Source: an uncultured Acidobacteriota bacterium
Lineage (GTDB): Bacteria; Acidobacteriota; Terriglobia; Terriglobales; Acidobacteriaceae
NCBI GenBank assembly: GCA_963745965.1
Contig: CAVUZC010000006.1
Span: forward strand, 148,895 to 212,894
Length of the DNA stretch: 64,000 nucleotides
Direction: 5' to 3'
The notes beneath the pieces were generated by a model. It was not told the DNA's origin. It ran no database searches and saw only the letters and a program-made list of their open reading frames with translations. This document shows positions 31,453-61,917 of this stretch, piece by piece. Both the position numbers and the translations under genes were made by a program. The stretch's first letter is position 1. Every line of letters starts with the position of its first letter.

Positions 31453-31550
31453 GAAAGAGAAGCTGTGTACTTTCTCGGCGCGCGCGGATCGTCGGCAGCA
31501 TCGGACAGAATGACGGTCCAAAAAACGATCTGGCGTGCAGGGAATGAATT

Positions 31551-31601
31551 TGTAGCGCCGGTCTCCAGACCGGCTGTCGTGCGGGCGTCCACGCCCGCAC
31601 A
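31551..31601. repeat. GTAG-tagged REP doublet (family A), copy 2
   Basis: TGTAGCGCCGGTCTCCAGACCGGCTGTCGTGCGGGCGTCCACGCCCGCACA. Confidence 0.8.
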
Positions 31602-31659
31602 TTGGAATCTTGGGACGGCTAATCCCTTGCCAGGCCCCGCGCTCCGAACTTCGGCAATC

Positions 31660-45082: not shown

Positions 45083-45193
45083 CACACGAGCAGTATAAAT
45101 TCGAACTACTGTTCCCCGCGTGCGCACTGCCACATGCGATCGACCTGCTCCTACGTATACTGTTCTGTTCCGCAGCGTAGGAGAATTGCCGTT

Positions 45194-48100
45194 GTGAGTA
45201 CGGGAACGACACGAAAGACCTGGTCTTTTCTATTCGCCGTCCTGATTTGCACGCCGCTCATAGGCGCGCAGACCCCAACTGGCGCCGAGGCAATCCGCCT
45301 GAACAATCGCGGCGTCGCCTTGATGGGCCAGCAGTCGACCCAGCGCGCGGCCGATACCTTCGCCGCAGCCCTCCAAAAAGACCCAAAGCTGGCGCAGGCC
45401 GCAATCAACGAGGGCATCGCGCTGCTTGTCCTCGAAAAACTGGACGACGCCAAACCATATCTGCGCAAGGCGATCGCGCTCGATCCTAACAACCCTCAGG
45501 CGTGGTACAACCTCGGCCTCGCGCAACATGCGAGCAACGATCTGCCAAATGCGCTGGCCAGCTTTCAGCAGGCGGCGAAGCTCGATCCCAAAGACGTGGA
45601 CTCGCTCTATTTCGAGGGCGCGTGCTATCAGGAAATGGGCCAGTACGATCGGGCGATCGCAATTTTCAAGAAGACGCTCGCAATCAACCCGCTTCATGCT
45701 TCGGCCGAGTTCGCACTGGCGCGCTCGCTGCAACGCACCGGGCACACGGCGGAAGCGCGCGAGCACCTCAAAATCTTTCAGCACTTAACCAGCACAAAAA
45801 TCTCGTCGCCTATCGGCCTGTCCTACGGCGAGCGAGGCCGCTACTCCACAGTGACTCCGATCGAGGAACCTGAGTCCATTCAGCGTCCGATGATCCCGGT
45901 AAGGCTCGTTGCGCAGCCGATGGTTTCTGCCGCCGAGGCGCGCACATTCTTCACCACCGGCGGCGCGTGCATGATGGACGTCACCGGCTCGGGACAGATG
46001 GATCTGATCCTGATGCAGTCTGGCCCGCAAGCCATCCGCATCTTGCACAATCGGGGTGGCGGCAGCTTTGAGGTGTTGGATGTCGAAGCGGCCGGGCTGA
46101 AAGCGAGCGGCCATGCCGTCGCCTGCGCGGTGGGCGACTATGATCGCGACGAGATGAACGACCTTGCCGTGGCCATGGATGACCGCGTGCTTCTGTTCCG
46201 CAATCTGGGGCACGGCAAGTTCAAGGATGTAACGGCAACTTCCGGCATCGTCCCGCGCAATCGGCCCACCGGCATCACGTTTGTGGATTACGACCACGAC
46301 GGCAATCTCGATCTGCTGCTCACAGGCGCACCGGTACGCGCGGGCGGACCCTCCAACGTGCTGTGGCGCAACAACGGCGATGGGAGCTTCACCGAAAAGA
46401 CCGAGGAGACCGGCATCGGCGGAAGCGGCAAAACCGAGGCAGCAATTCTCACCGACTTTAACAACGATCGTGCCGTCGATCTTGCGGTGACAGGCGACGG
46501 GGCCGCGCCGATTCTCTATATAAATCCCCGCGAAGGCAAATATCCGACGCAGCCGCTGTACGAAGGTGTTGCGCTGCCGCCGACGACGGGCATCGCGGTG
46601 CTCGACTACAACAAAGACGGCTGGATGGATATAGCCGTGACCCACGCGGGAGCACCGGGCCTCACGCTGTGGCGCAACGTCGAAGGCCCCAACCACATCG
46701 GCCGCCGCTTCGAGCGCGTCGATCTGCCGCTCCACGGCGCATTGCGTGGATGGGGCGTGACACCCATCGATATCGACAACGATGGATGGATCGACCTTGC
46801 CGCGATTGTCGAAACGCGGGCCGGCCCGCGCGTGCGCGTCTTTCGCAACCGCGGTGACGGCGCCTTTGAAGACATGAGCCATGCGCTGGGCCTGGACAGT
46901 ATCCGCCTGACTGCGCCGCGCGGGCTGATCGCCGCCGACGTAGACGGCGACGGCGCTCCCGATCTGATCGTGACCCAGCTAAACGCGCCGCCGCTGCTGC
47001 TGCGCAACCTGGGAGCGAACAAGAACCACTTCGTCCGTCTCGACCTGACCGGCTTCGCAGACAATAAGACCGCCCTGGGCGCGAAGGTCGAAGTCTTCGC
47101 CAACGGGCTCTGGCAAAAATGGGAGCTTGCCGGAGCATCGGGCTACCAGACGCAGGCGCCGCCGCAGATTCTCGTCGGCCTTGGCCAAGCGCCGGGCATC
47201 GACCTGTTGCGCATCCTGTGGCCCACCGGCGTCCTCCAGGATGAAATTGACTTGCCGCAGACGCGGGTGATCGCCATGAAAGAAGCCGACCGGCGCGGCA
47301 GTTCCTGTCCGGTGCTCTTCGTCTGGAATGGGCACCGCTACAAATTCGTCACTGACGTCATCGGCGCAGCGGTTGTCGGCCACTGGTTCACGCCCACGCG
47401 TCGCAACACGCCGAATCCCGGCGAATGGGTGAAGGTGGACGGCGCAGATGTCGCGCTCGTGAACGGCAAAATCAGCGCGCGCTTTATGGAGCCCATGGAA
47501 GAGGTGAACTACATCGATCAGTTGCGCATGATCGCCGTCGATCACCCCGAAGACGTCGAGGTCAATCCCGATGAGCGCTTTCTCGACGATCCACCGTTCG
47601 CTTCTGGCCGCGTGATCGCAAGCAAAGGCACGCGCCTGCCCCTCGGCGCTTGGGACGGCGAAGGACGCAATGTGCTCGACCTGCTCAGCCGGCGGGATCA
47701 CAACTTTGCCAGTGGATTCACCGCTCTGCCCTACGATGGTTTCGCCAGTCTGCACGCGCTCACACTCGATCTGGGCCCGCTCGACGCGCATGCCTCGCTG
47801 CGTCTGCTGATGACCGGCTACGTGAACTACTTCAGCGCGACCTCGCTCTATGCCGCTTGGCAGGCGAATGTGAAGGAGATTCCGCCGTACGTTGAAGCCG
47901 AGCTTCCTGACGGCGTCTGGCAGCGCATTCCGGGCGACGCAGGATTTCCCGCCGGTCTCGATCGCACCATCGTCATCGACCTGACGGGCAAGCTGCCGCC
48001 AGGCACGCGCCGCATCCGCCTGATGACGAATTTGCAAATCTATTGGGACCAGGTGCTCATCGACCAAAGTTCCGATGCAGAATCGCGCACGACAGAGATT

Positions 48101-48637
48101 CCCCTGGCCAGCGCGACGCTCCACTTCCGCGGCTACCCCAAGCAGATCGACCTCGCGAGTCCCGGCGATCTCGATTACAACTACGATCTCGTCAGTTTGA
48201 CCGGCCCCTTCCAGCACGAGCGCGGCAGTTACACGCGCATGGGCGAGGTGACGCCGCTCTTAAGAAATATTAGCGACCGCTTTGTGGTCTTCGGCAGCGG
48301 CGAAGAAATTCGCGCAGAGTTCGACGCATCACACTTGCCCGCGCTGCCCCCGCACTGGAAGCGCGACTACTTCTTCTACGCCAACGGTTATGTCAAAGAC
48401 ATGGACTGGTGGGACGCGTCGCCCTTCACCGTGGCGCAAATGCCATCGCATCGAATGTCCACATACCCTTATCCAAAATTAGAAGAAAATGTGCGGTCCC
48501 TCGACTATCAGTTGAACTGGAACGACCGTTTCGACTCGGGCGAACCAGTTCGCTCCTACCGCTTCGACTACAAACTGCTGCCTTCAACGCCGAGCGACGA
48601 TCGCGAGCTGCAGACCGCGCCGGAGACACAGCCATGA
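45194..48637 (+). CDS. TPR + FG-GAP/VCBS + ASPIC/UnbV multidomain secreted protein (paralog 3)
   Basis: GTG start with signal peptide; TPRs (NNRGVALM, AWYNLGLA); DYDHDGNLD, DIDNDGWID; LGAKVEV...SGYQTQ...ILWPTGVLQDE; GSSCPVLFVWNG C-terminal extension. Confidence 0.88.
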   Translation: MSTGTTRKTWSFLFAVLICTPLIGAQTPTGAEAIRLNNRGVALMGQQSTQRAADTFAAALQKDPKLAQAAINEGIALLVLEKLDDAKPYLRKAIALDPNNPQAWYNLGLAQHASNDLPNALASFQQAAKLDPKDVDSLYFEGACYQEMGQYDRAIAIFKKTLAINPLHASAEFALARSLQRTGHTAEAREHLKIFQHLTSTKISSPIGLSYGERGRYSTVTPIEEPESIQRPMIPVRLVAQPMVSAAEARTFFTTGGACMMDVTGSGQMDLILMQSGPQAIRILHNRGGGSFEVLDVEAAGLKASGHAVACAVGDYDRDEMNDLAVAMDDRVLLFRNLGHGKFKDVTATSGIVPRNRPTGITFVDYDHDGNLDLLLTGAPVRAGGPSNVLWRNNGDGSFTEKTEETGIGGSGKTEAAILTDFNNDRAVDLAVTGDGAAPILYINPREGKYPTQPLYEGVALPPTTGIAVLDYNKDGWMDIAVTHAGAPGLTLWRNVEGPNHIGRRFERVDLPLHGALRGWGVTPIDIDNDGWIDLAAIVETRAGPRVRVFRNRGDGAFEDMSHALGLDSIRLTAPRGLIAADVDGDGAPDLIVTQLNAPPLLLRNLGANKNHFVRLDLTGFADNKTALGAKVEVFANGLWQKWELAGASGYQTQAPPQILVGLGQAPGIDLLRILWPTGVLQDEIDLPQTRVIAMKEADRRGSSCPVLFVWNGHRYKFVTDVIGAAVVGHWFTPTRRNTPNPGEWVKVDGADVALVNGKISARFMEPMEEVNYIDQLRMIAVDHPEDVEVNPDERFLDDPPFASGRVIASKGTRLPLGAWDGEGRNVLDLLSRRDHNFASGFTALPYDGFASLHALTLDLGPLDAHASLRLLMTGYVNYFSATSLYAAWQANVKEIPPYVEAELPDGVWQRIPGDAGFPAGLDRTIVIDLTGKLPPGTRRIRLMTNLQIYWDQVLIDQSSDAESRTTEIPLASATLHFRGYPKQIDLASPGDLDYNYDLVSLTGPFQHERGSYTRMGEVTPLLRNISDRFVVFGSGEEIRAEFDASHLPALPPHWKRDYFFYANGYVKDMDWWDASPFTVAQMPSHRMSTYPYPKLEENVRSLDYQLNWNDRFDSGEPVRSYRFDYKLLPSTPSDDRELQTAPETQP

Positions 48638-50055
48638 AGGAGAAGGAGCGCGATCTGGTGCTCGCTCCAGCCGCGCAGCAGTTGGAATGGTTGCGCGCTG
48701 GCCGAATCTCAGTGGCTGAGCTGGCCGAAGCCCACATCCGTCAAATCGAGCGCCTCAATCCGCAACTGAACGTCTTTGCAGACTTTGACGCGGAACGCGT
48801 TCGCGAGCGGGCGCGGAAGCACGATGAGTGGCGCGGCACCCGGTCCCGCAGGCCATTGTTCGGTTTGCCGGTGACGGTGAAGTCGTCAATCGCAACGCGT
48901 GGATTTAAGTGCGAAATCGGCAGCCTGCTGCATAAAGGCGACGTGCCAGCTGAAGATGCGGTCGTCGTCGCGCGCTTGCGCGCCGCCGGAGCCTTGATTC
49001 TCGGCACCACCAACTGTCCCGAATTCCTGATGGCCTACGAAACCGCCAACCTGCTGCATGGCCGCACGAGCAATCCGTGGGATCTTGCCCGCTCTCCCGG
49101 CGGATCGAGCGGCGGCGAATCGGCCGCCATTGCCGCGGGAATGTCGGCGGGCGGATTGGGCTCGGACAGCGGCGGATCGGTGCGCGTGCCCGCGCACTTC
49201 ACAGGCATTTGCTCGCTCAAACCCACGCCGGGCCGCATTTCCGGGCGCGGGCATCTGCCGCCGTGCGTGGGGCCGTTCTCCACTCTCGGCGCCATCGGGC
49301 CTATGGCGCGCACCATCGGTGACGTCGCATTGTTCTTCCGCACCCTCAGCGGTCAGGACCCGCTCGATCCCGCCAGTCCCCCGATCACGTACCGCGAGCC
49401 CTGCCTCGAAGAGCTGCGCTCCCATCGCATCGGATTCTTCGAAGACGACGGTCTCGTTCCCGTGACAACAGAGACGCGCGCCGCGGTGAATGCCGCAGCC
49501 GCGGCCCTCCGTGACGCCGGTTTTCGCGTCGAGCCGTTCCGGCCGCGCACCCTCGAGCCGCTGCGCAAGTTGTGGTGGACATTCTTCGTGCAATGCGGCG
49601 CCATGTTTTACGAGCCGGAGATTCGCGGCCGGCGTCACCAACTCAGCCCTATCTTCAGCGAATTCCTCTCCATCGCCGAAGCCTCCGCTCCGCTCACCGC
49701 GACGGAGTTGCTCAATGCCTGGGCCGAGCTGGACCTTCTGCGCTCCAAAATGCTCGCGGAGATGAAGGATTATCCCGTCCTCCTCTGCCCGGTAGCCGCA
49801 ATTCCTGCGTTCCGTCACGGAGAGCGCAGTTGGACCATCGACGGCGCAGAAGTTGCCTACCTCGACGCGGTCCGCTACACGCAGTGGTTCAACACGCTCG
49901 GTGCACCGGCAGCGGTGGTTCCCGTGGGCCGCTCGCCGGAAGGCTTGCCGATCGGCGTGCAGATTGCCGCCCGCCCATTCGAGGATGAAGTAGCGCTGGG
50001 CGTCGCCGCCGTCGTCGATGCGGCCTTCGGCTTCCGCCCTCCCGCCCTCGCCTGA
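48634..50055 (+). CDS. Amidase signature family enzyme
   Basis: GLPVTVKSSI, PGGSSGGESAA, GSDSGGSVRVPA (Ser-cisSer-Lys triad), GLPIGVQI; ATGA overlap with the upstream gene. Confidence 0.93.
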   Translation: MKEKERDLVLAPAAQQLEWLRAGRISVAELAEAHIRQIERLNPQLNVFADFDAERVRERARKHDEWRGTRSRRPLFGLPVTVKSSIATRGFKCEIGSLLHKGDVPAEDAVVVARLRAAGALILGTTNCPEFLMAYETANLLHGRTSNPWDLARSPGGSSGGESAAIAAGMSAGGLGSDSGGSVRVPAHFTGICSLKPTPGRISGRGHLPPCVGPFSTLGAIGPMARTIGDVALFFRTLSGQDPLDPASPPITYREPCLEELRSHRIGFFEDDGLVPVTTETRAAVNAAAAALRDAGFRVEPFRPRTLEPLRKLWWTFFVQCGAMFYEPEIRGRRHQLSPIFSEFLSIAEASAPLTATELLNAWAELDLLRSKMLAEMKDYPVLLCPVAAIPAFRHGERSWTIDGAEVAYLDAVRYTQWFNTLGAPAAVVPVGRSPEGLPIGVQIAARPFEDEVALGVAAVVDAAFGFRPPALA

Positions 50056-50187
50056 TCCTTCGTCTCCACGTTTCGCCTCCACCTTTAGGTTGAGGCGCAC
50101 GGCAAGCAATCTCGATAGACTGAATCTTCCCTAATAGATGGAGGTCGCACGGAGAGCCCTGCGTGCGCGCAAGTTGGCAACAGCAGT

Positions 50188-51084
50188 TTGCCGAAAGCCC
50201 CGGCGTTCTTGGTCGGCGCGAGCCGTCGGCGAACGCTCGTTCCGGTGCGCGATTTCTTCGTCGGCGGAGACGAATTCGTCATCATGGCCGGGCCGTGCTC
50301 GGTTGAAACCGAAAGCCAGCTCATGGCCACGGCCCGTCATGTACGCCAGGCAGGCGCGCGCATCCTGCGCGGCGGCGCATTCAAGCCGCGCACCTCTCCG
50401 TATGCTTTCCAGGGTCTTGGTCTCGAAGGTCTGAAGCTTCTTGCCCGCGCGAGCGAAGCCACCGGGCTGGCAGTAGTCACCGAGGTGCTGTCGGAGACCG
50501 ACGTCGCGCTCGTCGCCGAATACGCCGACATCCTGCAAATCGGCTCGCGCAGCATGGAGAACTACGCTCTTCTCGAAGCCGCCGCACGATCCGGGCTTCC
50601 CATCCTCCTCAAGCGCGGCATGATGGCGACGATCGCGGATTTCCTCCGCGCGGCCCAGATCATCCTCGACCATGGCAACCCCAACGTCATTCTCTGCGAG
50701 CGCGGCATCCGTACCTTTGAAACCGCGATGCGCAACACCTTCGATGCGGCCGGCATCGCGCTCCTCAAGCAAGTCACGCACCTGCCCGTCATCGCCGATC
50801 CCAGCCATGCCTGCGGCTGCCGCGAGCTGGTTCCCGCGCTGGCGCGCATCGGCGTGGCTGCCGGTGCCGACGGCCTCATCGTCGAAGTGCATCCCGATCC
50901 CGACAATGCGTGGAGCGACGGCGAGCAGTCGCTCGATTTCCCCGCATTCGATGCCATGATGAACGCGTTGGAACCGTGGATCGAAGGTCGCGCCACGGCC
51001 CTCAATGGCGCCGCGGCGGTCTTGGAAGACAAGCTGGAACAGCACGAATTCGCCGGCCTCCGCATGGCGGGGGCATCGCGATGA
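50188..51084 (+). CDS. aroF: 3-deoxy-7-phosphoheptulonate (DAHP) synthase, class I-beta, lacking an N-terminal regulatory domain
   Basis: [58 protein letters not shown]. Confidence 0.9.
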
Positions 51085-52496
51085 CGTTTCATTCTCGGAA
51101 GGCTGCCGCAACCGTAGCCATTGCACTCCTGATTCTGGCCGGCGGTTTTGCACTCAGCAGAGCCAACGCGCCGGTTCCACTAATTGAAAGCGACATCATC
51201 GTGACCGCCGCGCCCGTTTACGTGCCCCTCGCCGAACTGCATGGACAGGAGCGATTTCCCAAGGGCGCGCAGTTGCTGCTGATTCATGCGGGCAAGGCGG
51301 AACCTCTCGTCACCGGCTTCGCGGCAACAGCGGATGCAAATGTTTCGTTCGACGCACAGACCGTGCTCTTCGCCGGACAACAAAATGAAAAAGACCCCTG
51401 GCAGATTTGGGAGCTCTCGCTCAGAGATCGCTCCGTGCGCAAAGTAATTGCGAGCGAAGGCAATGCGGAACGCCCGCTCTATCTGCCCGGCGGGCGGATG
51501 GTCTGGGCCGAGCGCACGCCCTCAGGATTTCAATTGCAATCCGCTGCGGATGGCCATCCAGCCGACGGCACCCAGTGGAATCCCACCGCCGGCCCCGGCG
51601 TGCTGCCGCTCAGCTACATCCAAGGCAACGCGTTTCCCGCCGACGTCCTGCGCGACGGCAGAATTCTGTTTGAGTCCGATTACCCGCTCGGCGCAGGCTC
51701 GACACCGGAGCTGTATCTCGTCTACGCCGATGGATCGGGCATCGAGTCGGTGCGCTGCGATCATGGCCGCCCGCGCTGGGGCGGAGCGCAGCTCTCGACT
51801 GGCGACATCGTATTCACGCACGGAACTTCGCTTGCCCGGTTCACTTCCCCTCTCGCGCGCGAAGTGCCGCTCCCCTCACCTCCCGCACACTACGCCGGGT
51901 CCATCGCGGAAACCGCATCGGGCACATGGCTCGTGAGCGCGCGCACAGCGACCGACGCACACTATGCCATCAGGATGTGGCAACCCGGTTCAGCGGCACT
52001 GCGCACAGTCTTTGCTCAAACCCGCGTGGATCTCGTCGAGCCGGTCGTCGTTGCGCCGCGTCCTCGTCCCAATCGCCACCCCTCCGGCCTGCACCCCTGG
52101 AACTACGCAAATCTGCTGGCTCTCGATGTGCGCATCTCGCGCGATGGCGCTCTGCGCGGTGTGCCCGCCAGCGTGCGGCTTGAAGTGCAAGATGCGACCG
52201 GAAAAATCAGCACTACAGGAGCCGCGCCCATCGAAAGCGACGGTTCGTTCTTTGTGCAGGTTCCGTCCGACCGGCCCATCCGCTTCGCAATCCTCAATGC
52301 CAAAGGCACGGTTCTGCGTCAGGAACACGGCTGGTTCTGGAGCCGCAGCGGCGAGCAGCGCATCTGCGTCGGCTGCCATGCCGGCCCGGAGCGCGCGCCG
52401 GAAAATCGCGTGCCAGCGGTGCTGCTGCGCACCATCACGCCATTCGACCTCACCGGAAAACCTCCGGCAGTCGCAGCAGGAGGGCTCTCCAAATGA
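51081..52496 (+). CDS. Hydrazine synthase alpha-subunit-like secreted protein (TolB-like propeller + HZS-alpha middle domain, one CxxCH)
   Basis: [12 protein letters not shown]...[43 protein letters not shown]...PIRF..L...G, W...[10 protein letters not shown]. Confidence 0.7.
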
Positions 52497-54310
52497 ATCT
52501 GCGCGCGGCCATTTTCACCGCGATCCTTTCTCTTACCTCGGCACATGCGCAAACCGCCGCGCCAGCAGCGGCTGCCGCCCCGCCCGCGCCGAGTTCTTCA
52601 GAACATCTACAGCCGGCGGCCAGCGTTCCCGCATCCAACGAGCAAACCGCATCTCCAGCCGCCATCGCGCCCACGAACGCGCCCGCCGGAAGCACCAACG
52701 CAAATGTTCCCGCCATCCGCTTTGAAGACACCACCGATTCCGCCGGCATCGACTTCGTGCACAGCTTCGGTTCGGCGCAGTTGGGATCGCTCCTCGAGGG
52801 CACCGGCGCCGGCTGCGTCTGGTTCGACTACGACAATTCGGGCCTGCCTTCGCTCTACGTCGCCAACGGCCGCCCGCTCGACAATTCCATGCATCCGCAT
52901 CCGCTCAAGGTGAAGCCCAATCCGCCGCCGCACAATCATCTCTACCGCAACGACGGCAACGGACACTTCACCGACGTAACCGACAAGGCCGGCCTCAACC
53001 CGGACATGTACTCGATCGCGGTCACTGCCGGCGATTACGACAATGACGGCAACGAAGATTTGCTCGTCACCGGCTACGGCAAGGTTGTTCTCTACCACAA
53101 CGACGGCGACGGCCACTTCACCGACGTTACCGAAAAAGCCGGCATCAAGGTCAGCGGCTGGGCCATCAGCTCCACATGGATCGACTACGACAGGGACGGC
53201 TGCCTGGATCTGTTCGTCGGCCGCTACGTCAAATTCGATCCCAAGTACCGCGCCTACTACGCCGCCGACAACTATCCCGGTCCGCTCGATTACGCGGGCG
53301 AAACCAACATGCTCTTCCACAACAACTGCAACGGCACTTTTACCGATGTAACTGACAAGTCGGGCATCGGCAGCTACGTCGGCCGCACCATGGGCGTCAC
53401 CATCGGCGATTTCACCGGCGACGGCTGGGACTCGATCTACGTTGCCAACGATCGCACGGAAAACTTTCTCCTCCACAACAAGCACGACGGAACCTTCGAA
53501 GACATCGCTTCCGACACCGGTACGGCCTTCGGCCAGAACGGCGAGTCCACCTCCGCCATGGGCCCCGTGTTTGCGGACTTCGGCAATCGCGGCGTGCTCG
53601 ATCTGTGGGTCTCCGATGCGCGTTACAACCGCATGTTGAAAAACACCGGCCAGATGAGCTTCGACGACATGGGCGCAACCAACGGCATCTCGCAGGCCAA
53701 CGCGCAATACACGAGCTGGGGTTCGGGCGTGTACGACTTCGATAACGACGGCAATCTCGACATCCTCATCTTCCACGGCGGCCTCATTCACCTCATTCCC
53801 GAAGAACATACGCTCTTCCGCGGATTGGGCAACGGAAAGTTCGAGGACGATTCGCTTGCCGCCGGTCCGGCACTCAGCACGCGCACCGTCGCCCGCGGCG
53901 CATGTTTCGCCGACTACATGAACGACGGCAAAGTGGGAGCCTTCGTCGTCAACCTCGGCGCGCGCGGCACGCTCCTGCGCAACGTCTCCACAAGCACCGG
54001 CCACTGGATCGACATAAATCTCGTGGGCGCCATGCGCGCCGGCGATCATGGCGCCCCTCCCGGCCCAACTTCCAAAAGCAACCGCGACGGCATCGGCGCG
54101 CGCGTTGAGGTCTTCGCTGGAAACTGGCATTCGCTTGAGGAGCGAGTGGCCGCATCGGGCTACCTTTCGCAGAACGATGGCCGCCTGCACTTCGGTCTCG
54201 GCGCGGCAACACAAGTGGACAAGATCGTAGTGCACTGGCCCAGCGGGCGCGAGCAGACGCTCGAACACCAGAGCGTAGACCGCGTGCTCACCATCGAGGA
54301 GCCGAAATGA
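52493..54310 (+). CDS. CRTAC1-like FG-GAP + ASPIC/UnbV protein (paralog 4)
   Basis: DYDNDGNED, DYDRDGCLD, DFDNDGNLD; GIGARVEV...ASGYLSQNDGRLHFGLG...VHWPSG. Confidence 0.9.
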   Translation: MNLRAAIFTAILSLTSAHAQTAAPAAAAAPPAPSSSEHLQPAASVPASNEQTASPAAIAPTNAPAGSTNANVPAIRFEDTTDSAGIDFVHSFGSAQLGSLLEGTGAGCVWFDYDNSGLPSLYVANGRPLDNSMHPHPLKVKPNPPPHNHLYRNDGNGHFTDVTDKAGLNPDMYSIAVTAGDYDNDGNEDLLVTGYGKVVLYHNDGDGHFTDVTEKAGIKVSGWAISSTWIDYDRDGCLDLFVGRYVKFDPKYRAYYAADNYPGPLDYAGETNMLFHNNCNGTFTDVTDKSGIGSYVGRTMGVTIGDFTGDGWDSIYVANDRTENFLLHNKHDGTFEDIASDTGTAFGQNGESTSAMGPVFADFGNRGVLDLWVSDARYNRMLKNTGQMSFDDMGATNGISQANAQYTSWGSGVYDFDNDGNLDILIFHGGLIHLIPEEHTLFRGLGNGKFEDDSLAAGPALSTRTVARGACFADYMNDGKVGAFVVNLGARGTLLRNVSTSTGHWIDINLVGAMRAGDHGAPPGPTSKSNRDGIGARVEVFAGNWHSLEERVAASGYLSQNDGRLHFGLGAATQVDKIVVHWPSGREQTLEHQSVDRVLTIEEPK

Positions 54311-56217
54311 ACCGCGTCGCCAAAGCCGGTCTGCTGGCCGCCTCATTTCTTGCAGCGGTTTTCATCGCTGCCGCGCCGTGGGCCGCAAAATCGGTTCACG
54401 CGGCGGCGCGCGCACGCACCGGCGAACCTCTCGTCTACGCCTCTCCCGTCGAGACCTTGTTTTCGCCCGACGGCGCGCGGCTTTACGTGCTTTGCCAGCA
54501 AAGCAACGACGTCCGCGTGCTCGACGCAACAACCTACAAAGTAATCGCCACAGTAGCCGTAGGCCGCGTCCCGCGCGGATTCGCGCTCTCGCCCGACGGT
54601 TCGCGTCTCTTCGTGGCCAACTCCTGGGACGACACGATCTCGGTCATCGACACGCAATCGTTGCAAGTCAGCATCACCTGGCCGGTCAGCGCGGAGCCGT
54701 CGAGCGTAGCCCAGGACCCAGCCGGCAAGTACATCTTCGTCGCCAATCGCATCTCGAACGACGTAGCCGTTCTCGACGCTCGCACCGGCGCGGAACTAAA
54801 GCGTCTCGCCGCCGGCCGCGGCGCGAGTTACATGACGCTCTCCCCCGACAGCCGACGCCTTTACGTTACGCATGTGTACCCGAACCTGCCCGCGCACGCC
54901 AGCGAACAGGGCAACCGGCTTCCGCCGGAGTCCGAGATCACCATCATCGACACCGCGCGCGCCGTAGTCGCCGATCGCATTCCCCTCCACAGCATCGCCG
55001 GCGTCTTTCACGTCGCCTTCACCGCAGACGGACGCTTAGGCGCAGTCGCCGAACTGCACCCCAAAAACCTTGTCCCGCTCGCGCATCTCGAGCACGGCTG
55101 GGCCTTCGCGGACACGCTGACTCTTTTTGGCGCTGACGTCGGTCCAAAACCAGTAGAAATACCTCTCGACGAGCTGGAGCGCTACGCCGCGCGACCCTTT
55201 GGCGTCGCCATCACGCCGGATAAATCACGCCTCTACGTCACCAGCGGCGGTTCCGAAATCGTGACCGCGATCGACGTTCGGCGTCTGCTCTCCACCGTGC
55301 GCGCGCGGCGCAAATCCTTCACCGAGGATCTATCGGCCAGCGCGAATTACGTCGTAACCCGCATCGACGTAGGCCACGATCCCCGCGGCGCAACCATCTC
55401 TCCTGACGGCCGCAAGCTCTTCGTCGCCAACCGTCTCGATGACACCATCAGCGTCATCGACACTCGCACCAATCGCGTGGCCGCAACCATCCCTCTGGAC
55501 GGACCGAAAGAGCTCTCGGTCCTGCGCTACGGCGAGCAAACTTTCTACACCGCCCGCTATTCCTTCCAGGGCCAGATCGGCTGCGCCAACTGCCACATCG
55601 ATTCCACCTTCGACGGCCTCGCCTGGGACCTCGAACCCGATGGCTTCGGCGTGGACATCGTGGAAAACAAACTGCTCGAGGGCGTCAAGAACGTCGCTCC
55701 CTACAAGTGGAACGGCGGCAATCCCAACCTGCCCACCGAGTGCGGCCCGCGCACGGAAAAATACTTCTGGCGCTCGGAGAGCTTCGACGATCTGACGCTG
55801 GCCGACCTCGTCACCTACATCCGCAGCCTGCAGCCCAGACCCAATCGCTGGCGTCTTCCGAATGGCGAATTGACCCCGGCACAGGAACGCGGCAAAGAAC
55901 TCTTCGAGCGCGCAACCGACAAACTTGGGGCGCCCATCCCGATCGAGAATCGCTGCTCCTATTGCCACAGCGGCCCCGAGGGCACTGATCGCAAACTCTC
56001 CGACGTGGGTACCAAGAAGCCCACCGACCGTTCCGGCATTTTGAAGACTCCTCAACTCACCAACATCGCGCTCATGGCGCCCTATCTGCACGACGGCTCC
56101 GCGCCATCGCTCGAAGAAATCTGGACCGTATTCAATCCCGCGGACAAGCATGGCCGCACCAACGACCTGACCAAAGACGAGCTTAATGACTTAATTGAGT
56201 ATTTGAGGACGCGATGA
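54307..56217 (+). CDS. YVTN beta-propeller fused to a diheme cytochrome c (CCP/MauG-like) domain; HzsB-HzsC-like architecture
   Basis: Repeated SPDGxRLYV/VAN...DTISVID; CANCH and CSYCH; PYKWNG; TPQLTNIALMAPYLHDGSA; DLIEYLRT. Confidence 0.85.
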   Translation: MNRVAKAGLLAASFLAAVFIAAAPWAAKSVHAAARARTGEPLVYASPVETLFSPDGARLYVLCQQSNDVRVLDATTYKVIATVAVGRVPRGFALSPDGSRLFVANSWDDTISVIDTQSLQVSITWPVSAEPSSVAQDPAGKYIFVANRISNDVAVLDARTGAELKRLAAGRGASYMTLSPDSRRLYVTHVYPNLPAHASEQGNRLPPESEITIIDTARAVVADRIPLHSIAGVFHVAFTADGRLGAVAELHPKNLVPLAHLEHGWAFADTLTLFGADVGPKPVEIPLDELERYAARPFGVAITPDKSRLYVTSGGSEIVTAIDVRRLLSTVRARRKSFTEDLSASANYVVTRIDVGHDPRGATISPDGRKLFVANRLDDTISVIDTRTNRVAATIPLDGPKELSVLRYGEQTFYTARYSFQGQIGCANCHIDSTFDGLAWDLEPDGFGVDIVENKLLEGVKNVAPYKWNGGNPNLPTECGPRTEKYFWRSESFDDLTLADLVTYIRSLQPRPNRWRLPNGELTPAQERGKELFERATDKLGAPIPIENRCSYCHSGPEGTDRKLSDVGTKKPTDRSGILKTPQLTNIALMAPYLHDGSAPSLEEIWTVFNPADKHGRTNDLTKDELNDLIEYLRTR

Positions 56218-57386
56218 GAAATCTTGCGCATCTGAGAGGTTTCGCAATGGCGCTTGCTCTGGCCGCCGCAGCGGCCGTGCAAGTCTCCAGCGCGCAACAT
56301 GCGCCCACCGTGCGGGCAGCGGCTCGGGCAACTAAAGCACAGATCTCGAAGACTTCCGCCTCAACTCAATCGCTTCCGCGTTTCCGCTTCCAGAACTTCA
56401 CCACCGCCGATGGCCTTCCCGACAATCACGTCTACGCGGTGCTGGTCGACGGAGATCGCATCTGGGCGGGCACAGACAACGGCGTCGGTCTCTACGAGAA
56501 CGGCAAATGGAAAACCTTCACCACGAAAGACGGCCTGGCCCAGCGCGCCGTGCTTTCGCTGGCCCTCGACAAGCGCACCGGCGCGGTGTGGGCCGGCACC
56601 ATGGGCGGGTTGAGCCGCATTTCTGCGGGTCGCATCGATACCTACACGCAACTCAACTCCGGCCTCAGCAACGATGTGGTCTACGGCGTCTCCGTGCAAG
56701 GCGACAACGTCTGGGTGGCAACAGCCGCCGGCGCATGCAGGCTGAACACCCGCACCGGCCAGTGGTCGCTCTGGAACGAACGCAACACGCCCATGCGCGA
56801 GATATGGGTCTATGGCGTCTCAGCCCAGCCGGACAAAGTCTACTTCGCGGTGTGGGGCAGCGGCCTGCTCGAGTACACGCAAAAGACCGGCGCATGGGAC
56901 ATCTACAAGGACCCCGACGGAGAAACCGAGGTCGTCGTGCTCAAGGATCAAGGTCTGATTCACGACATCACCAGTTCGGTCAGCTATGTCAACGGCATCG
57001 TCTGGGTCTCCACTTACTTCGGTGACAGTCGATACGACGGCCGCTACTGGCACAACTTCATGACCAAGGACAGCGGCCTGCCCTCCAACTTTACGAACTT
57101 CATCAAGGGCGTCGACGCGAACCGTGCCTGGTTCTGCACCGACAAAGGTCTGGCCTACTACGACGGCGCAAACTGGGCCGTCTATCGCCCTTCGCTCACC
57201 ACCGGCAAGCCGGAGATGACAGTCCGCGATGCACAGGGACGCGTCTCGGCAATCCCCGTCACCACAGCTCCGGCCCACAACTACATTCTCGGAATCGACT
57301 TTCAGGGCGACGACATCTGGGTCGCCACAGCCAAAGGATTGAGCCACGGAATTCGTCAACGATTCGCCAAGGAGGCATCACGATGA
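56214..57386 (+). CDS. Stand-alone secreted beta-propeller (Reg_prop-like repeats)
   Basis: FTTADGLPDNHVY, IWAGTDNGV, VWAGTMGGLS, GLSNDVVY, GLPSNF, IWVATAKGLS; no kinase domain. Confidence 0.8.
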   Translation: MRNLAHLRGFAMALALAAAAAVQVSSAQHAPTVRAAARATKAQISKTSASTQSLPRFRFQNFTTADGLPDNHVYAVLVDGDRIWAGTDNGVGLYENGKWKTFTTKDGLAQRAVLSLALDKRTGAVWAGTMGGLSRISAGRIDTYTQLNSGLSNDVVYGVSVQGDNVWVATAAGACRLNTRTGQWSLWNERNTPMREIWVYGVSAQPDKVYFAVWGSGLLEYTQKTGAWDIYKDPDGETEVVVLKDQGLIHDITSSVSYVNGIVWVSTYFGDSRYDGRYWHNFMTKDSGLPSNFTNFIKGVDANRAWFCTDKGLAYYDGANWAVYRPSLTTGKPEMTVRDAQGRVSAIPVTTAPAHNYILGIDFQGDDIWVATAKGLSHGIRQRFAKEASR

Positions 57387-57874
57387 GTGCATTTGCAGAA
57401 ATTCTTGAAGCCATCGCCCACGCGCCGGTAAAAAAACGTGCGATCACCAACCACAACGTCCTTAACGAGGCCTTCGCATACGCTAAGCCCAGCTCGTTCT
57501 CGCGCGGCATGAGAATCGATCTGGGCAGCGTAACCATTCTCCTGATCTCAGGCACGGCTTCCATCGACGAAACCGGCCAGAGCGTGCACATCGGCGATTT
57601 CCGCGCGCAGATGCGGCGCACGCTCTCCAACATCACCGGACTGCTGGCCGCCGAGGGCTGCACCTGGCACGACATCGTGCGCACCACCTGCTACCTCCGC
57701 GACATCGAGCGCGACTACGAAGCCTTCAACGAAGAGCGCACCACTTTCTTCAAGGAACAGGGGCTCGATCCGCTGCCGGCATCCACCGGCATTCAGGCCA
57801 TCCTTTGCCGTCCCGAGCTGCTCATCGAGATCGAGGCCATCGCAATGTTCCGCAACCAGAAGAGCAGCTCCTAG
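57383..57874 (+). CDS. Rid/YjgF family protein (non-RidA type, resembling the FkbO/Hyg5 C-terminal domain)
   Basis: LISGTASID..G...H.GD..AQ..RTL.NI; PASTGIQA.LCRPELLIEIEAIA; no Arg at the RidA PAR position. Confidence 0.8.
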   Translation: MSAFAEILEAIAHAPVKKRAITNHNVLNEAFAYAKPSSFSRGMRIDLGSVTILLISGTASIDETGQSVHIGDFRAQMRRTLSNITGLLAAEGCTWHDIVRTTCYLRDIERDYEAFNEERTTFFKEQGLDPLPASTGIQAILCRPELLIEIEAIAMFRNQKSSS

Positions 57875-57908
57875 TGACCTGTCTCGCGCAACGTTTGCGC
57901 CGAGGACT

Positions 57909-58013
57909 TGAAAGGCACGACTTTGCATCTCGCCGAAACAACCCGATGCTTTGAAAGGGCACGACTTCAGTCGTGCCGTGGAACGTTGGAATCGACTGGG
58001 CTTTAGCCCCTGA
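57909..58013. repeat. Palindromic REP-like repeat (family C), copy 2 plus a partial upstream copy
   Basis: AAGGGCACGACTTCAGTCGTGCCG...GGGCTTTAGCCCCTG, preceded by AAAGGCACGACTTT. Confidence 0.65.
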
Positions 58014-58095
58014 GGGATGGTTCTTCCGGAACATGAACCTCTGCCGTAGGCGGCTGGGCTCTGGCCGGCAAGTGCTCCAGACGGAGAGAAACACA

Positions 58096-60177
58096 ATGCG
58101 CAAACGTTGGATGATTTCGGCGACATGTCTATGGGTGCTATGCGTTGCACCTGCTCTCATGAGCCAAACTCCCGCACAAACCGGCCACATCTGCCAGTGC
58201 GGTGCTCATCCCCCCGGCCCGCCGCAGGACCGCACAGTCGAACCCTACGCCAACACCCCTCCTGACCTCGAGCCATACGAGCATTTTGTTAAGCCGTACT
58301 ACTTGAATTACACGCACCCAAACATCTACACCGGCGCGGCACGCGATATTCCCGATCCGATAGACGTGAAGGAAGTGCGTATAGGCTTTCTTGGCCCCAT
58401 CGCGAAGCAAGCCGACCAGGTCTACGGCCTGCGCATGTTACACGGCGCGCAAATGGCCATCGACGACGCCAACGCGCGCGGCGGCTACGGCGGCAAGCCA
58501 TTCCGCCTCATGGTGCACGACGACTATTCAAACTGGCAGTTCACCGCGGAAGGTGGCGAGCAACGGCCCACCGATCCCGCCATCTGGGGCGCGCCTCTCG
58601 ACGAATCCGTGAAGATGGTCTACGACGAAAACGTGTGGGCTGTCTTCGGCTCCATCAGCTCCGAGTCTACGCACATGATGCTGCGCCTTGCGCTCAAAGC
58701 GGAGTTCCCCATCGTCAACTCGGCTTCCACCGATCCCACGATTCCTGAAACCTCCGTCCCGTGGTACTTCACCGATCTACAGGACGATCGCGTGCAAGCC
58801 TACACTCTGGCGCGGCGCGTTTTCACTGAGCTCCGGCTCAAGCGTGTCGCGCTTCTGCGCGTCAACAATCGCTACGGCCGAATGGCAGCGGAAAAATTCC
58901 GTGATGCGGCCATACGCCTCGGCCGTCCGGTCGTCATCGAGCAGAAATTCATGCCAGGCGATACGGATTTCGCGCGTGAACTGGGCATCATTCGCGACTC
59001 GCGCGTCGACGCGGTCGTAATTTGGGCCGATCAGTCTGAAGCCGCCGGCATTCTCAAGCAGATGCGCGCCATGGGCATGAAGCAGCGCGCGTTTGGCGCC
59101 TATCGCACGCTTGGGTCCGATCTCGCCACCGAGGCTGGACCTGCCGCCGAGGGATTTGAAGCCGTCTTTCCCTACGATCCCACGCGCAACGATCCGCGCT
59201 GGCTCGATTTCAACCGCCGCTTCCAGGCGCGCTACCACGAGCCGCCGGAGCAGTTCGCCTCGCTGGCCTACGACGCCATGAACATTCTTCTGGATTCCAT
59301 CTGCAAAGCGGGATTGAACAGGGCGCGCATTCAGGACGCGCTGGATCAGGTCTATCAGTACGACGGCGTCACCGGCCACATGGTTTTCGATCCCAATAAC
59401 AAAAATGTAGCGCCCATGTTTCTCGGCACGGTGCACAACGGCGCAATCACCTACCGGTCGGCCACCATGAACAAAGCCCGCGCCGCCTCTGAGCAACCCG
59501 CAGCCGTGCCCGCTGCCAGGTCGACTGCGCCGCCGTCCACGCCCGAATCAGCCGTGCCGCCAACTCCCTACGCGCGCGTCGGTGAAGACAGCGTAGAGTT
59601 CCTTGGCCCGCACACCGCGAATCTGCCGGCGGGAACTGCGCGCGTAATCGTTTTCGGCCGCGGCGCAGAACAAGTCGCGCACAGCCCTGAAGTCCTTGCC
59701 ACATTGCGTGCAGCATCTCCACAAAATCCCAAATTGTCGCTTGTGCCCGTCGAGAGCGGCCAAAACTGGGGCGCGGCCTCAACCCAGCTGGTTCACGCGC
59801 TCATGGACGGCCACGCGCTGGCCATCCTCGCGCTCGATCGCGACGCCGCGCACCTGTCCGAGCAGCTGGCCCTCAAATGTTTCGTTCCCGTAATCGCCCT
59901 CAGCGACGACCAAACGCTCACCTCGGCCAATATCCCGTGGATCTTCCGCCTGCCCGCCGAAACCACGCCCGCCGCGGCGCTCCGCATCATTGAGCAAGCG
60001 TCCTCCCGCGATGGCGCAAATCCCGAGCGTCTCCGCGATCTGCTCGCCTCAGGAAAAGAAATCGCCGAGGCACAGCCTTCCTCCCCACCGGCGAGCCCCG
60101 CCGCCAATAGAGCGACCTCCGCCACCTTCGAAATTTACTTCGAGATTGATCTGCTGCCTCCCACGACCGCGCCGTAG
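58096..60177 (+). CDS. LivJ-like (type 1) periplasmic solute-binding protein with a second degenerate binding domain; C-terminal frameshift likely (true stop near 60110)
   Basis: VRIGFLGP, GAQMAIDDANARGG, VFGSISSES, GVTGHMVFD; second ALDRDAAHLSEQLALK...SANIPWIFRLP unit. Confidence 0.75.
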   Translation: MRKRWMISATCLWVLCVAPALMSQTPAQTGHICQCGAHPPGPPQDRTVEPYANTPPDLEPYEHFVKPYYLNYTHPNIYTGAARDIPDPIDVKEVRIGFLGPIAKQADQVYGLRMLHGAQMAIDDANARGGYGGKPFRLMVHDDYSNWQFTAEGGEQRPTDPAIWGAPLDESVKMVYDENVWAVFGSISSESTHMMLRLALKAEFPIVNSASTDPTIPETSVPWYFTDLQDDRVQAYTLARRVFTELRLKRVALLRVNNRYGRMAAEKFRDAAIRLGRPVVIEQKFMPGDTDFARELGIIRDSRVDAVVIWADQSEAAGILKQMRAMGMKQRAFGAYRTLGSDLATEAGPAAEGFEAVFPYDPTRNDPRWLDFNRRFQARYHEPPEQFASLAYDAMNILLDSICKAGLNRARIQDALDQVYQYDGVTGHMVFDPNNKNVAPMFLGTVHNGAITYRSATMNKARAASEQPAAVPAARSTAPPSTPESAVPPTPYARVGEDSVEFLGPHTANLPAGTARVIVFGRGAEQVAHSPEVLATLRAASPQNPKLSLVPVESGQNWGAASTQLVHALMDGHALAILALDRDAAHLSEQLALKCFVPVIALSDDQTLTSANIPWIFRLPAETTPAAALRIIEQASSRDGANPERLRDLLASGKEIAEAQPSSPPASPAANRATSATFEIYFEIDLLPPTTAP

Positions 60178-60190
60178 GCGCAGTGTATCG

Positions 60191-60258
60191 TTAGCCCCGC
60201 GCTTCAGCGTGGGGTAAATGGCTTCAAAGAGTGATTCCGGAGTCCCGTAGGGACGGCG
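60191..60258. repeat. REP-like palindromic element (family D)
   Basis: TTAGCCCCGCGCTTCAGCGTGGGG...AGTCCCGTAGGGACGGC; two short hairpins in an intergenic region; single copy in the window. Confidence 0.45.
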
Positions 60259-60332
60259 CAAAGACATTTCCTTATCGGAGTCAACTTCGCCTGCGATTAC
60301 GCCCGCATCTTTGAGTCAATCCCTCTAGTACC

Positions 60333-61917
60333 ATGGTCAACATGCATCCGCAGTCCACCATCAACGGTGCGCAGAGCGATCGCGCGCCTTCCTCACCCGC
60401 CGGCCAGCAGATGGTCGCAAGCCTGGGCCTCTTCAGCGCCACCACCATCGTCGTCGGCTCCATGATCGGCAGCGGCATCTTCATCGTCGACTGCGACATC
60501 GCGCGCCTCACCGATTCTCCGGCGCTGTACCTCGGCGCGTGGATCGTCACCGCCGTCATGACCATGATCTGCGCCCTCAGCTACGGCGAACTCGCCGCCA
60601 TGATGCCCAAAGCCGGCGGCCAATACGTCTACCTGCGCGAATCGCTCGGCCCCCTCTGGGGATTTCTCTACGGCTGGACGCTCTTCCTCGTCATCGAGAC
60701 CGGAACCATCGCCGCGGTCTGCGTGGCCTTCGGCAAATTTCTCGGCGTCTTCTTTCCCGTCGGTATCGAGCACGCACTGGCTCTGGCACATCGCGCACGT
60801 TCCGGCCATTCCCGTCGGCCCCATGCTGCTCGGCAACATGGACATCGGCGTCAGCACCGCGAATCTCGCCGGCATTCTCGTCGTTCTGCTTCGTCGCCGC
60901 CGTCAACATCTGCGGTGTGCGCTTCGGCGCGCTCGTGCAAAACGTCTTCACCGTGGCCAAGGCGCTCTCGCTCGCCGCGCTCGTGCTTCTGGGATTCACC
61001 ATCGGCCGCAACGCCGCGGCCATCGCGGCCAACTTCGGCAGCCACTGGCACGAGTTCTGGCGCAACGCGGGCTGGCATTCGCTTCATCCCGTGCAGGTGG
61101 GCGCGCAGGGCCCCATCGTCATGGTGGGCACTCTCGCCATCCTCGCCGTGGTGCAGGTCGGCTCGCTCTTCTCCGCCGACGCGTGGAACAACGTCACCTT
61201 CACCGCCGGCGAAATCAAGAATCCCCGCCGCAACGTGCCGCTCTCGCTCGCCCTCGGCGTCGGCTTCGTGCTGGTGGTCTATTTCCTCGCCAGCGCGGCA
61301 TACATCCTCGTGCTTGCCGCTGCACGGCGATCCGCACGGCGCAACGGTCTTCGCGCGCGGCGTGCAATACGCCTCCGAGGACCGCATCGGTGCCGCCGTG
61401 CTGCAGCAGATCTTTCCCGGAGTGGGTGGCTACCTGATGGCCGCGGCGATCCTCATCTCCACCTTCGGCTGCGCCAACGGCATCACGCTCTCCGGCGCAC
61501 GCGCCTACTACGCCATGGCGCAGGACGGCCTCTTCTTTGGTTTTGTAGGCAAAGCTGCATCCACGCTATAAAACTCCGGCCGCCGGCCTCGTCGTCCAGG
61601 CCGTGTGGACGACCATCCTCTGCGTCTCCGGCTCCTACGGCCAGTTGCTCGACTACATCATCTTCGCCGAGCTGGTCTTTTACATCCTCACCATCGTCGG
61701 CCTCTTCATCCTGCGCCAAAAGCAGCCCAACGCCCCGCGCCCCTACAAAGCCTTCGGCTATCCCGTGCTGCCCATTCTCTACATCGTGATGGCCGCAGGC
61801 ATCTGCGCCGCGCTGCTCCGCTACAAGCCGCAATACACCTGGCCCGGCCTGATCCTCGTGCTGCTGGGCATTCCCGTCTATCTTTATTGGTCGCGGAAAG
61901 ATCCAGCAAGGGTGTAG
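60333..61917 (+). CDS. APC family amino acid permease; multiple frameshifts
   Basis: GSMIGSGIF, YGELAAMMPKAGGQYVYL, LFSADAWNNVTF..GE.KNP.RNVP, GARAYYAMA.DG, RPYKAFGYPVLP across three frames. Confidence 0.9.

Follow-up and report, generated by a model that had tools for sequence, protein, structure and literature searches.

The window analysed here is a 64,000-nucleotide stretch of an acidobacterial genome assembled from a soil metagenome. It carries a co-directional row of genes, g1 to g9, two of which encode heme proteins homologous to hydrazine synthase (HZS) of anammox bacteria: g4 resembles the alpha subunit of that enzyme, and g6 resembles a fusion of its beta and gamma subunits. The nearest relatives of the source genome are labelled Terracidiphilus or Acidobacteriaceae, and their samples came from peat, bog, fen and palsa. 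The gene row and the features adjoining it are given below, with domains assigned by Pfam and NCBIfam profiles (aa, amino acids).

45194-48637, plus strand: g1, exported protein with TPR, FG-GAP and UnbV_ASPIC domains (CRTAC1-like), 1147 aa (Pfam)
48634-50055, plus strand: g2, cytoplasmic amidase-signature enzyme (Amidase PF01425, E 5e-102)
50188-51084, plus strand: g3, type I-beta DAHP synthase (DAHP_synth_1, E 5e-73)
51081-52496, plus strand: g4, short HzsA-like protein with one heme (HZS_alpha PF18582)
52493-54310, plus strand: g5, exported CRTAC1-family protein, FG-GAP_3 propeller with a C-terminal UnbV_ASPIC domain (Pfam)
54307-56217, plus strand: g6, HzsB-like seven-blade YVTN propeller fused to an HzsC-like diheme (CCP_MauG) domain
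56214-57386, plus strand: g7, exported single Reg_prop beta-propeller (Pfam)
57383-57874, plus strand: g8, cytoplasmic Rid/YjgF-family protein (Ribonuc_L-PSP PF01042)
57905-57980, no strand given: REP-like hairpin repeats between g8 and g9 (repeat word count and predicted hairpin)
~58096-60177, plus strand: g9, exported LIVBP-type binding protein (Peripla_BP_6)
60333-61917, plus strand: frameshifted gene for an APC-family permease (matches split over three frames)

An earlier reading of this DNA, made from the letters and open reading frames alone (hereafter the sequence-only reading), had described the six genes from 50188 to 57874 as chained by ATGA overlaps. All five overlaps that join g3 through g8 were located, at 51081, 52493, 54307, 56214 and 57383. 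The TPR-ASPIC and amidase genes, which it had placed co-directionally upstream, correspond to g1 and g2, and these two are themselves coupled by a sixth ATGA overlap at 48634. Signal-like N-termini were found on the products of g1, g4, g5, g6, g7 and g9, and on none of those of g2, g3 and g8.

The g4 product (471 aa) begins with a signal or anchor, followed by a beta-propeller and then by a middle domain whose only CxxCH motif is at residue 429. In the profile search that had been suggested as a check, it matched the HZS_alpha family (PF18582) with 57.8 bits against a cut-off of 26.6, and its sequence matched the alpha subunit of the Kuenenia stuttgartiensis enzyme (PDB 5C2V, chain 5c2v_A) with E 4e-9. 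When the AF2 model of g4 (pLDDT 89) was submitted to Foldseek, the HZS-alpha chain 5c2v_D ranked top (E 4.9e-22, TMq 0.74), and the next fold, TolB (E 4e-11), was eleven orders of magnitude weaker. C429, C432 and H433 are unchanged across 43 diverse homologues. The alpha-like family comprises ~2100 clusters at 50% identity.

The g6 product matched HZS-beta (5c2v_B) with E 1.6e-41, residues 15-350 of 352 being aligned, and HZS-gamma (5c2v_C) with E 3.5e-24, whereas the best structures of CCP, MauG and MbnH proteins were matched at E 6e-9 or weaker. Its top NCBIfam family was hydrazine_BC, the beta-gamma fusion of HZS, albeit with a score below the cut-off of that family. HZS-beta 5c2v_B also came first in the Foldseek search with the g6 model (E 1.6e-30, TMt 0.85), in which the propeller is confident and the diheme domain is poor (pLDDT <50), and the loop insertion in propeller blade 6 of HZS-beta is present in g6. 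The propeller was recognised by the YVTN profile in the same check. The C-terminal 240 aa share with the CCP/MauG/MbnH superfamily two CxxCH motifs (at 426 and 550, the only two in g6), an inter-heme Trp and a PY-x-HDG motif. The domain passes the Pfam cut-off of CCP_MauG (PF03150; 32.3 bits against 25.6), covering profile positions 23-79 only, and MbnH-family and MauG models match it as well. It differs from the members of that superfamily in being fused to an HzsB-type propeller and in that no CCP or MauG is as near to it as HzsC.

The homology of g4 and g6 to all three HZS subunits is specific and goes beyond generic propeller folds, since the HZS chains are far ahead in both the sequence and the Foldseek rankings. 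The sequence-only reading, which had both halves of an HZS-like architecture co-encoded and would have fallen had the likeness been that of generic propellers, is supported on both counts. Each of the three subunits agrees with its counterpart in anammox HZS in fold and domain order. Also shared are the CxxCH pocket motifs of heme alphaI, the blade-6 loop insertion, two gamma hemes and, in the host genus, a third cysteine beside heme gammaI; a beta-gamma fusion is also found in the anammox genus Scalindua. On the other hand, g4 and g6 are just 17-28% identical to their anammox counterparts, and the genes stand in the opposite order, with an additional CRTAC1 gene among them.

Judged by its residues and profile scores, the locus is not a hydrazine synthase, because HZS-specific residues are missing and the NCBIfam cut-offs for HZS are far missed. 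(i) Anammox HZS has a Tyr as the proximal ligand of its alpha heme and a domain for heme alphaII, and the locus has neither. The counterpart of alphaTyr591 in g4 is Glu437 in a phmmer alignment, and the local motif contains no Tyr; because this ligand is absent, the heme of g4 is predicted to be canonically His-ligated. The protein ends ~40 residues past its sole CxxCH (the 5c2v_A chain has 782 aa), leaving out the heme alphaII domain. (ii) The residue numbers of HZS gamma were mapped from the chain by an offset of 39, set by the heme motif, and on this scale the position of gammaHis144 is taken in g6 by Trp468, invariant in 21 sequences, and that of gammaAsp168 by Thr483 according to the alignment. 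gammaAsp168 is the proposed proton donor in hydroxylamine formation (PMC12607021). (iii) The scores against their cut-offs were 48/800 for hydrazine_alpha, 194/1250 for hydrazine_BC, 164/560 for hydrazine_beta and 88/625 for hydrazine_gamma. (iv) No hydrazine dehydrogenase is co-distributed with the locus: the genome's sole octaheme HAO/HDH-like protein scored 57 bits on hydrazine_HDH against a cut-off of 900, and a protein of this kind occurs in 5/41 relatives, as compared with 24/41 for g6. With alphaTyr591, gammaHis144, gammaAsp168 and the alphaII domain missing and the cut-offs missed, the formation of N-N bonds in the manner of HZS, which had been entertained for this operon, is unlikely.

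Two further positions of g6 bear on its hemes. Cys479 is the equivalent of gammaCys165, which provides the third Cys link of heme gammaI, and it is kept in the host genus. In the PYLHDG motif, the position of the Met ligand of CCP is Leu594 in 20/21 sequences with no Met after it, and His615, in the domain modelled with low confidence, is invariant and common to HzsC. Because Leu occupies the CCP Met position and His615 is shared with HzsC in this way, the alignment suggests that heme 2 of g6 may be bis-His ligated, as is heme gammaII of HZS.

Gene clusters of this type have been described outside the anammox bacteria. Hagglund et al. (2025) searched GTDB for HZS homologues (PMC12758564) and, in non-anammox bacteria, came upon alpha-like genes located together with fused beta-gamma-like ones, which were sorted into clades I-IV (PMC12758564). 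In clades I and II the CRTAC1/FG-GAP gene lies between the alpha and beta-gamma genes, whereas in clade III its place is upstream of the alpha gene; heme alphaII is missing in clades II and III, and the clade II alpha protein lacks ~100 C-terminal residues (PMC12758564). Extra hemes number eight in the beta-gamma protein of clade I and one in that of clade III; clade II has none. Trp stands in place of gammaHis144, the Tyr591 region is deleted, and the Tyr591 ligand is absent in clades I-III (PMC12758564). Our locus agrees with clade II in the order alpha, CRTAC1/FG-GAP and fused beta-gamma (g4, g5 and g6), in a short alpha protein with one CxxCH and no heme alphaII, in a beta-gamma protein with two hemes only, in the Trp for gammaHis144 and in the absence of alphaTyr591. 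As a match by gene and residue features rather than by tree placement, it shows every feature stated for clade II, and it is almost certainly a member of these non-anammox HZS-homologue clusters. Terracidiphilus proteins are among the hits tabulated in that study, as are RefSeq (GCF) assemblies, including Granulicella sp. L46 and one assigned by GTDB to Terracidiphilus (PMC12758564). Its authors concluded that the homologues cannot make hydrazine and left their function open (PMC12758564). Pairs of hzsA-like and hzsBC-like genes had already been reported in 2023 from Phycisphaerae UBA1845, for which Suarez et al. proposed a broader enzyme family acting on other substrates (PMC10732223).

The sequence-only reading knew of no characterised system with this gene set. 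As a description of the core this no longer applies, since the alpha-CRTAC1-beta-gamma arrangement is published (PMC12758564, PMC10732223). The Reg_prop, Rid and DAHP synthase partners are mentioned in neither PMC12758564 nor PMC10732223, and binding-protein genes were reported for clade III only (PMC12758564). What the analysis adds is thus the set of Reg_prop, binding-protein and Rid partners, together with a recurrent DAHP synthase, around a core cluster already described.

The survey of operon conservation that had been called for was run. In 80 Terracidiphilus/Acidobacteriaceae loci the gene order g1-g9 is essentially invariant, and the deviations are mostly contig ends; g6 is present in 19/24 sampled genomes of the host genus. 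Among the best 120-150 matches listed per homologue search, all came from Acidobacteria. A second family of the order has g6 at 39% identity. Of its four loci, three have the arrangement alpha-CRTAC1-beta-gamma-Reg_prop-Rid-DAHP synthase followed by one or two binding-protein genes, and the fourth (L027) is without the DAHP synthase. Two metagenomic contigs with g4 26-28% identical carry (CRTAC1-)alpha-beta-gamma-Reg_prop-Rid-binding protein-DAHP synthase-binding protein. In an even sample of the phylum (301 genomes), a full-length relative of g4 was found in 13 genomes spread over seven families, and the 11 informative loci fetched from this sample (L116-L126) include all three published architectures, with the 10-heme, 2-heme and 3-heme beta-gamma protein. 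In each locus long enough to show it, the beta-gamma gene is succeeded by a gene for a Reg_prop propeller and by one or two for LIVBP-type binding proteins. The two heme genes, whose co-occurrence in other genomes had been anticipated, were found together across genera and families. The gene unit thus exceeds chance, and its core recurs, rearranged, in other families. Furthermore, metatranscriptome contigs from permafrost and wetland that are 80-90% alike to the locus cover all of its genes, one of 5.7 kb spanning g5-g7 and one of 11 kb lying on g5. This suggests, without proving it, that related clusters are expressed, as DNA may be present in such libraries.

The partner genes differ in how tightly they follow the core. 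A g5-type CRTAC1 gene is present in nearly all clusters; the only PDB relative of g5 is human CRTAC1 (9etn, E 5e-12), and no functional studies on bacterial CRTAC1, or on Terracidiphilus with these genes, were found in the literature. In the PDB, g7 is related to the periplasmic sensor propellers found in hybrid two-component systems of Bacteroides (4a2l, E 6e-24). For g9, the relatives there are binding proteins for branched-chain amino acids (4gnr, E 5e-29), and some aromatic-acid-binding LIVBP-family proteins are among its weaker matches. A C-terminal extension of g9 (~240 aa), in which Pfam finds no family, is genus-specific, and every cluster has one or two copies of a g9-type binding protein. 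Neither an ABC permease gene nor an ATPase gene was found next to g9, and the neighbours in L029 show the operon to end at this gene.

The best-conserved protein of the module is g8, with 57-78% identity across families (apart from one weaker match of 39%, L126), as compared with 26-35% for g4. A g8-type Rid gene was found in 23/24 relatives with g6 and in 0/17 without it; in the phylum sample, it was found in 11/13 genomes with a full-length g4 relative and in about three genomes without a clear one. The Rid protein is therefore tightly co-distributed with the cluster. As a single-domain PF01042 protein, g8 resembles both the RidA/YjgF deaminases and the FkbO/Hyg5 chorismatases, which have one fold. 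Arg105 of RidA binds the substrate carboxylate. The RidA imine deaminases carry this residue, whereas the whole g8 subfamily has Ser, as shown by the alignment to HI0719 and by nine homologues in which the Ser is kept, and g8 scored 51.6 on the RidA model TIGR00004 against a cut-off of 106. Chorismatase activity was considered for g8 and rejected, as the matches to the FkbO/Hyg5 catalytic domain were only marginal (TIGR04444 E 9e-8, 4bps E 0.009) and ordinary Rid proteins were much closer (E 1e-11). A protein atlas returned family names only for g7 and g8.

For g3, the scores were 391 bits against 335 on NF006421 and 354 against 268 on TIGR01361. The match covers profile positions 78-327 only, meaning that the N-terminal regulatory domain is missing, and the motifs KPRT and GPCSVE (with the Cys metal site) are present. 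This is the third DAHP synthase of the genome, the paralogues lying on C16 (type I-alpha) and C1 (type I-beta with the regulatory domain, 47.5% identity). The gene recurs, at changing positions, in clade-II-like and clade-III-like clusters, and it is missing from the cluster in 8/11 loci of the phylum sample (L116-L126) and in all but one clade-I-like locus. The proposal that the operon is wired to chorismate supply is consequently borne out in part: g3 is indeed an additional DAHP synthase and recurs in distant clusters, yet many clusters lack one. The g2 amidase, which falls below every NCBIfam equivalog cut-off, was found in 74/80 close loci and elsewhere in G102 only. g1, in whose C-terminal ~450 aa Pfam finds no family, is syntenic in 67/80 close loci and G102 and absent in other families. 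Both g1 and g2 are family-specific additions, and the amidase, counted by the sequence-only reading as part of the system, turned out to be lineage-specific rather than part of a general unit.

We consider it most likely, with a probability of roughly 60%, that the module encodes an exported c-heme oxidoreductase with two sites, whose small ligand would be delivered by the binding protein. What was observed directly is the homology described above, together with the signals for export, the heme motifs, the synteny and the co-distribution, and genes for cytochrome c maturation are present in the genome, which speaks for this reading. Several points weigh against it. The ligand assignments in g6 are derived from alignments because of the low pLDDT of the diheme domain, and the position of Cys479 is occupied by Asp in the clusters of other families. 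The DAHP synthase and Rid genes lie outside the cluster or are missing in several lineages, and it is hard to see where a cytoplasmic DAHP synthase would fit into a catabolic scheme. Since no transporter gene adjoins g9, the role of its product as substrate presenter is a conjecture. Finally, no biochemical characterisation of any cluster member was found in the literature, and in this respect the earlier description of the gene set as uncharacterised stands.

How such an oxidoreductase might work can be sketched by analogy with HZS, although we regard the outline as tentative and, taken as a whole, rather doubtful. In the gamma subunit of HZS, a surface-exposed bis-His heme relays electrons to a five-coordinate catalytic heme, and the alpha heme is reached by an internal tunnel whose gate is one of the beta subunit's loops (PMC12607021). 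From this analogy we infer complex formation, a tunnel, a class of substrate and a direction of electron flow. g4 and g6 would form an exported alpha/beta-gamma complex, in which the putative bis-His heme of g6 would pass electrons to a five-coordinate heme resembling gammaI, with Trp468 as the relay in the manner of CCP and MauG, and a second, canonically His-ligated heme would sit in the alpha middle domain of g4. A small substrate, probably nitrogenous or amino-acid-like, would be presented by g9 and converted at the two sites. The product would then enter the cell, where the Rid protein (g8) and the amidase (g2) may process it; that the Rid protein is cytoplasmic and strictly coupled to the cluster suggests processing in that compartment. 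The 2-heme form found here would need a separate electron donor, or would use H2O2. The existence of 10-heme relatives implies that an electron-transfer chain can be connected to the catalytic pair. A bolder version of this outline, in which the module is a sister enzyme system of HZS in aerobic soil bacteria that performs a two-site, tunnel-coupled conversion of nitrogen species, seems improbable to us. For example, NO or hydroxylamine would be reduced and coupled to a co-substrate, amino or aromatic, that the binding protein delivers, and the N-N or N-C bonded product would be processed by the Rid protein. If true, it would add a new reaction to the soil nitrogen cycle.

A different role for the diheme domain would be maturation in the manner of MauG. 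Activated by H2O2 or O2, the domain would modify a residue of a co-encoded propeller into a protein-derived cofactor, and the resulting quinoprotein-like enzyme would oxidise an amine supplied by the binding protein, with the Rid protein handling imines. Such a role would suit the inter-heme Trp used by MauG and bacterial CCPs, which is invariant here as Trp468 (PMC12758564), as well as the matches of the domain to CCP_MauG, MbnH-family and MauG models and the constant presence of several exported, non-catalytic-looking propellers. We think it unlikely, because the domain is far nearer to HZS-gamma (E 3.5e-24) than to CCP, MauG or MbnH (E 6e-9 or weaker), a candidate precursor motif was not found, and the eight extra hemes of the clade-I-like relatives fit electron transport to a catalytic site better.

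The chances are equally slim that the cluster serves an aromatic metabolite, with the DAHP synthase and a chorismatase-like Rid protein making a hydroxybenzoate-type compound, the heme complex oxidising or coupling it so that it serves as mediator, pigment or chelator, and the binding proteins taking it up again. The distribution of g3 cuts both ways: as an additional DAHP synthase without the feedback domain, its linkage survives changes of gene order in three cluster types, but the gene is missing in 8/11 loci of the phylum sample and in all but one clade-I-like locus. g8 lacks the RidA arginine and has weak matches to the FkbO/Hyg5 chorismatases, although it is much nearer to ordinary Rid proteins (E 1e-11). 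Likewise, aromatic-acid-binding LIVBP proteins are among the weaker matches of g9, whereas its best relatives bind branched-chain amino acids. Within the operon there is neither an exporter nor any additional shikimate or tailoring gene.

Somewhat less probable still is that the cytoplasmic genes (those for the DAHP synthase, the amidase and perhaps the Rid protein) are unrelated passengers on a shared transcript. The ATGA coupling that chains g3-g8 and g1-g2 argues against it, as do the reappearance of the DAHP synthase at different positions in clusters of 26-39% identity and the near absence of g8-type Rid genes from genomes without the cluster. It would nevertheless explain why the DAHP synthase and amidase are lineage-restricted, and why their products reside in another compartment than the heme proteins with no connecting pathway logic. 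A genuine former of N-N bonds, be it a cryptic hydrazine synthase or an enzyme by which an amine or aromatic amine is coupled with NO or NH2OH, is very improbable despite the real homology to each of the three HZS subunits, the third cysteine of gammaI type (Cys479) kept in the genus, the blade-6 loop insertion and the co-encoded nitrogen-related genes (Rid, amidase and amino-acid-type binding protein), since the alphaTyr591 ligand is absent (Glu437 by alignment), gammaHis144 and gammaAsp168 are replaced by Trp and Thr, the NCBIfam HZS scores are far under their cut-offs, the sole octaheme HAO/HDH-like protein is neither close to hydrazine dehydrogenase (57 against 900 bits) nor distributed like the cluster (5/41 relatives against 24/41), and the host, going by its genus, is an aerobic peat heterotroph.

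To our knowledge, HZS was long thought to be without relatives. Its distant homologues are now known as widespread, none of them with a known function, and in abundant peat Acidobacteria they belong to a module that is strongly conserved. As constant companions of the heme proteins, Reg_prop, the binding protein and Rid limit the range of substrates to be considered and provide a lead for experiments; with RefSeq carriers such as Granulicella sp. L46, its function may be experimentally accessible. Such work would bear on the evolution of HZS and on unrecognised heme chemistry in soil.

Other heme proteins were noted in these genomes. Additional solo beta-gamma-like paralogues are present in some genomes of the genus (L028 9476-11800, L023 8156-10075), with no g1-g9 genes found within ~10 kb on either side, and one solo paralogue, of 774 aa, has two additional N-terminal heme motifs. 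In L117 (7693-9498 and beyond), a beta-gamma-like open reading frame (ORF) carries four extra heme motifs at its C-terminal rather than its N-terminal side, six in total, a layout absent from the arrangements given in the 2025 paper (PMC12758564). The octaheme HAO/HDH-like gene of the source genome (G000:C5:53494-54888, locus L129) lies outside the window, and its product has a membrane-anchor-like N-terminus; it was rejected as a partner of the cluster, being found in 5/41 relatives and not co-distributed. On C10 and C13 the genome also holds ORFs whose heme motifs number 10, 11 and 12.

Downstream of g8, the sequence-only reading had continued with a solute-binding protein, which is g9 itself, and an APC permease, which does not belong with the other genes. 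The permease gene (60333-61917) is spread over three reading frames with at least three frameshifts, the preceding 15 kb being intact, and no counterpart was found in 96 related Acidobacteriales loci or in distant loci. Because it is frameshifted and has no counterpart at related loci, it is probably a pseudogene outside the functional unit. Upstream of g1, the window encodes three more exported proteins of domain types that also occur in the cluster: a twin Reg_prop propeller of 835 aa (31465-33972), an FG-GAP protein of 400 aa (36262-37464) and a pentaheme cytochrome c554-like protein with TPR repeats (39089-41332, 747 aa). The last of these was considered as an electron donor and rejected, as its gene is not syntenic with the cluster in 4/5 relatives. 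A divergent nucleotide-sugar trio on the minus strand (41689-45133), encoding a DegT-type aminotransferase, a UDP-GlcNAc 2-epimerase and a Polysacc_synt_2 dehydratase, adjoins g1 in most close relatives and probably represents unrelated cell-envelope sugar synthesis.

A search for sigma-54 promoters gave no match, and scans for sigma-70 promoters and terminators were uninformative. The region between g8 and g9 (57905-57980) contains two repeat copies, the second of which is a perfect hairpin, GGCACGAC-TTCA-GTCGTGCC, and the repeat word GAAAGGGCACGAC occurs 34 times in the genome. The depth over this region was by far the highest in four RNA libraries, up to ~5500, and the repeat may be a REP-like element or belong to a small-RNA family. 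The sole match of the Rfam scan was below threshold (Acido-Lenti-1, 60168-60214 on the minus strand, 29.3 bits against 37, E 0.003). It sits exactly at the 3' end of g9, and contigs of the RNA libraries have loose ends at 60167.

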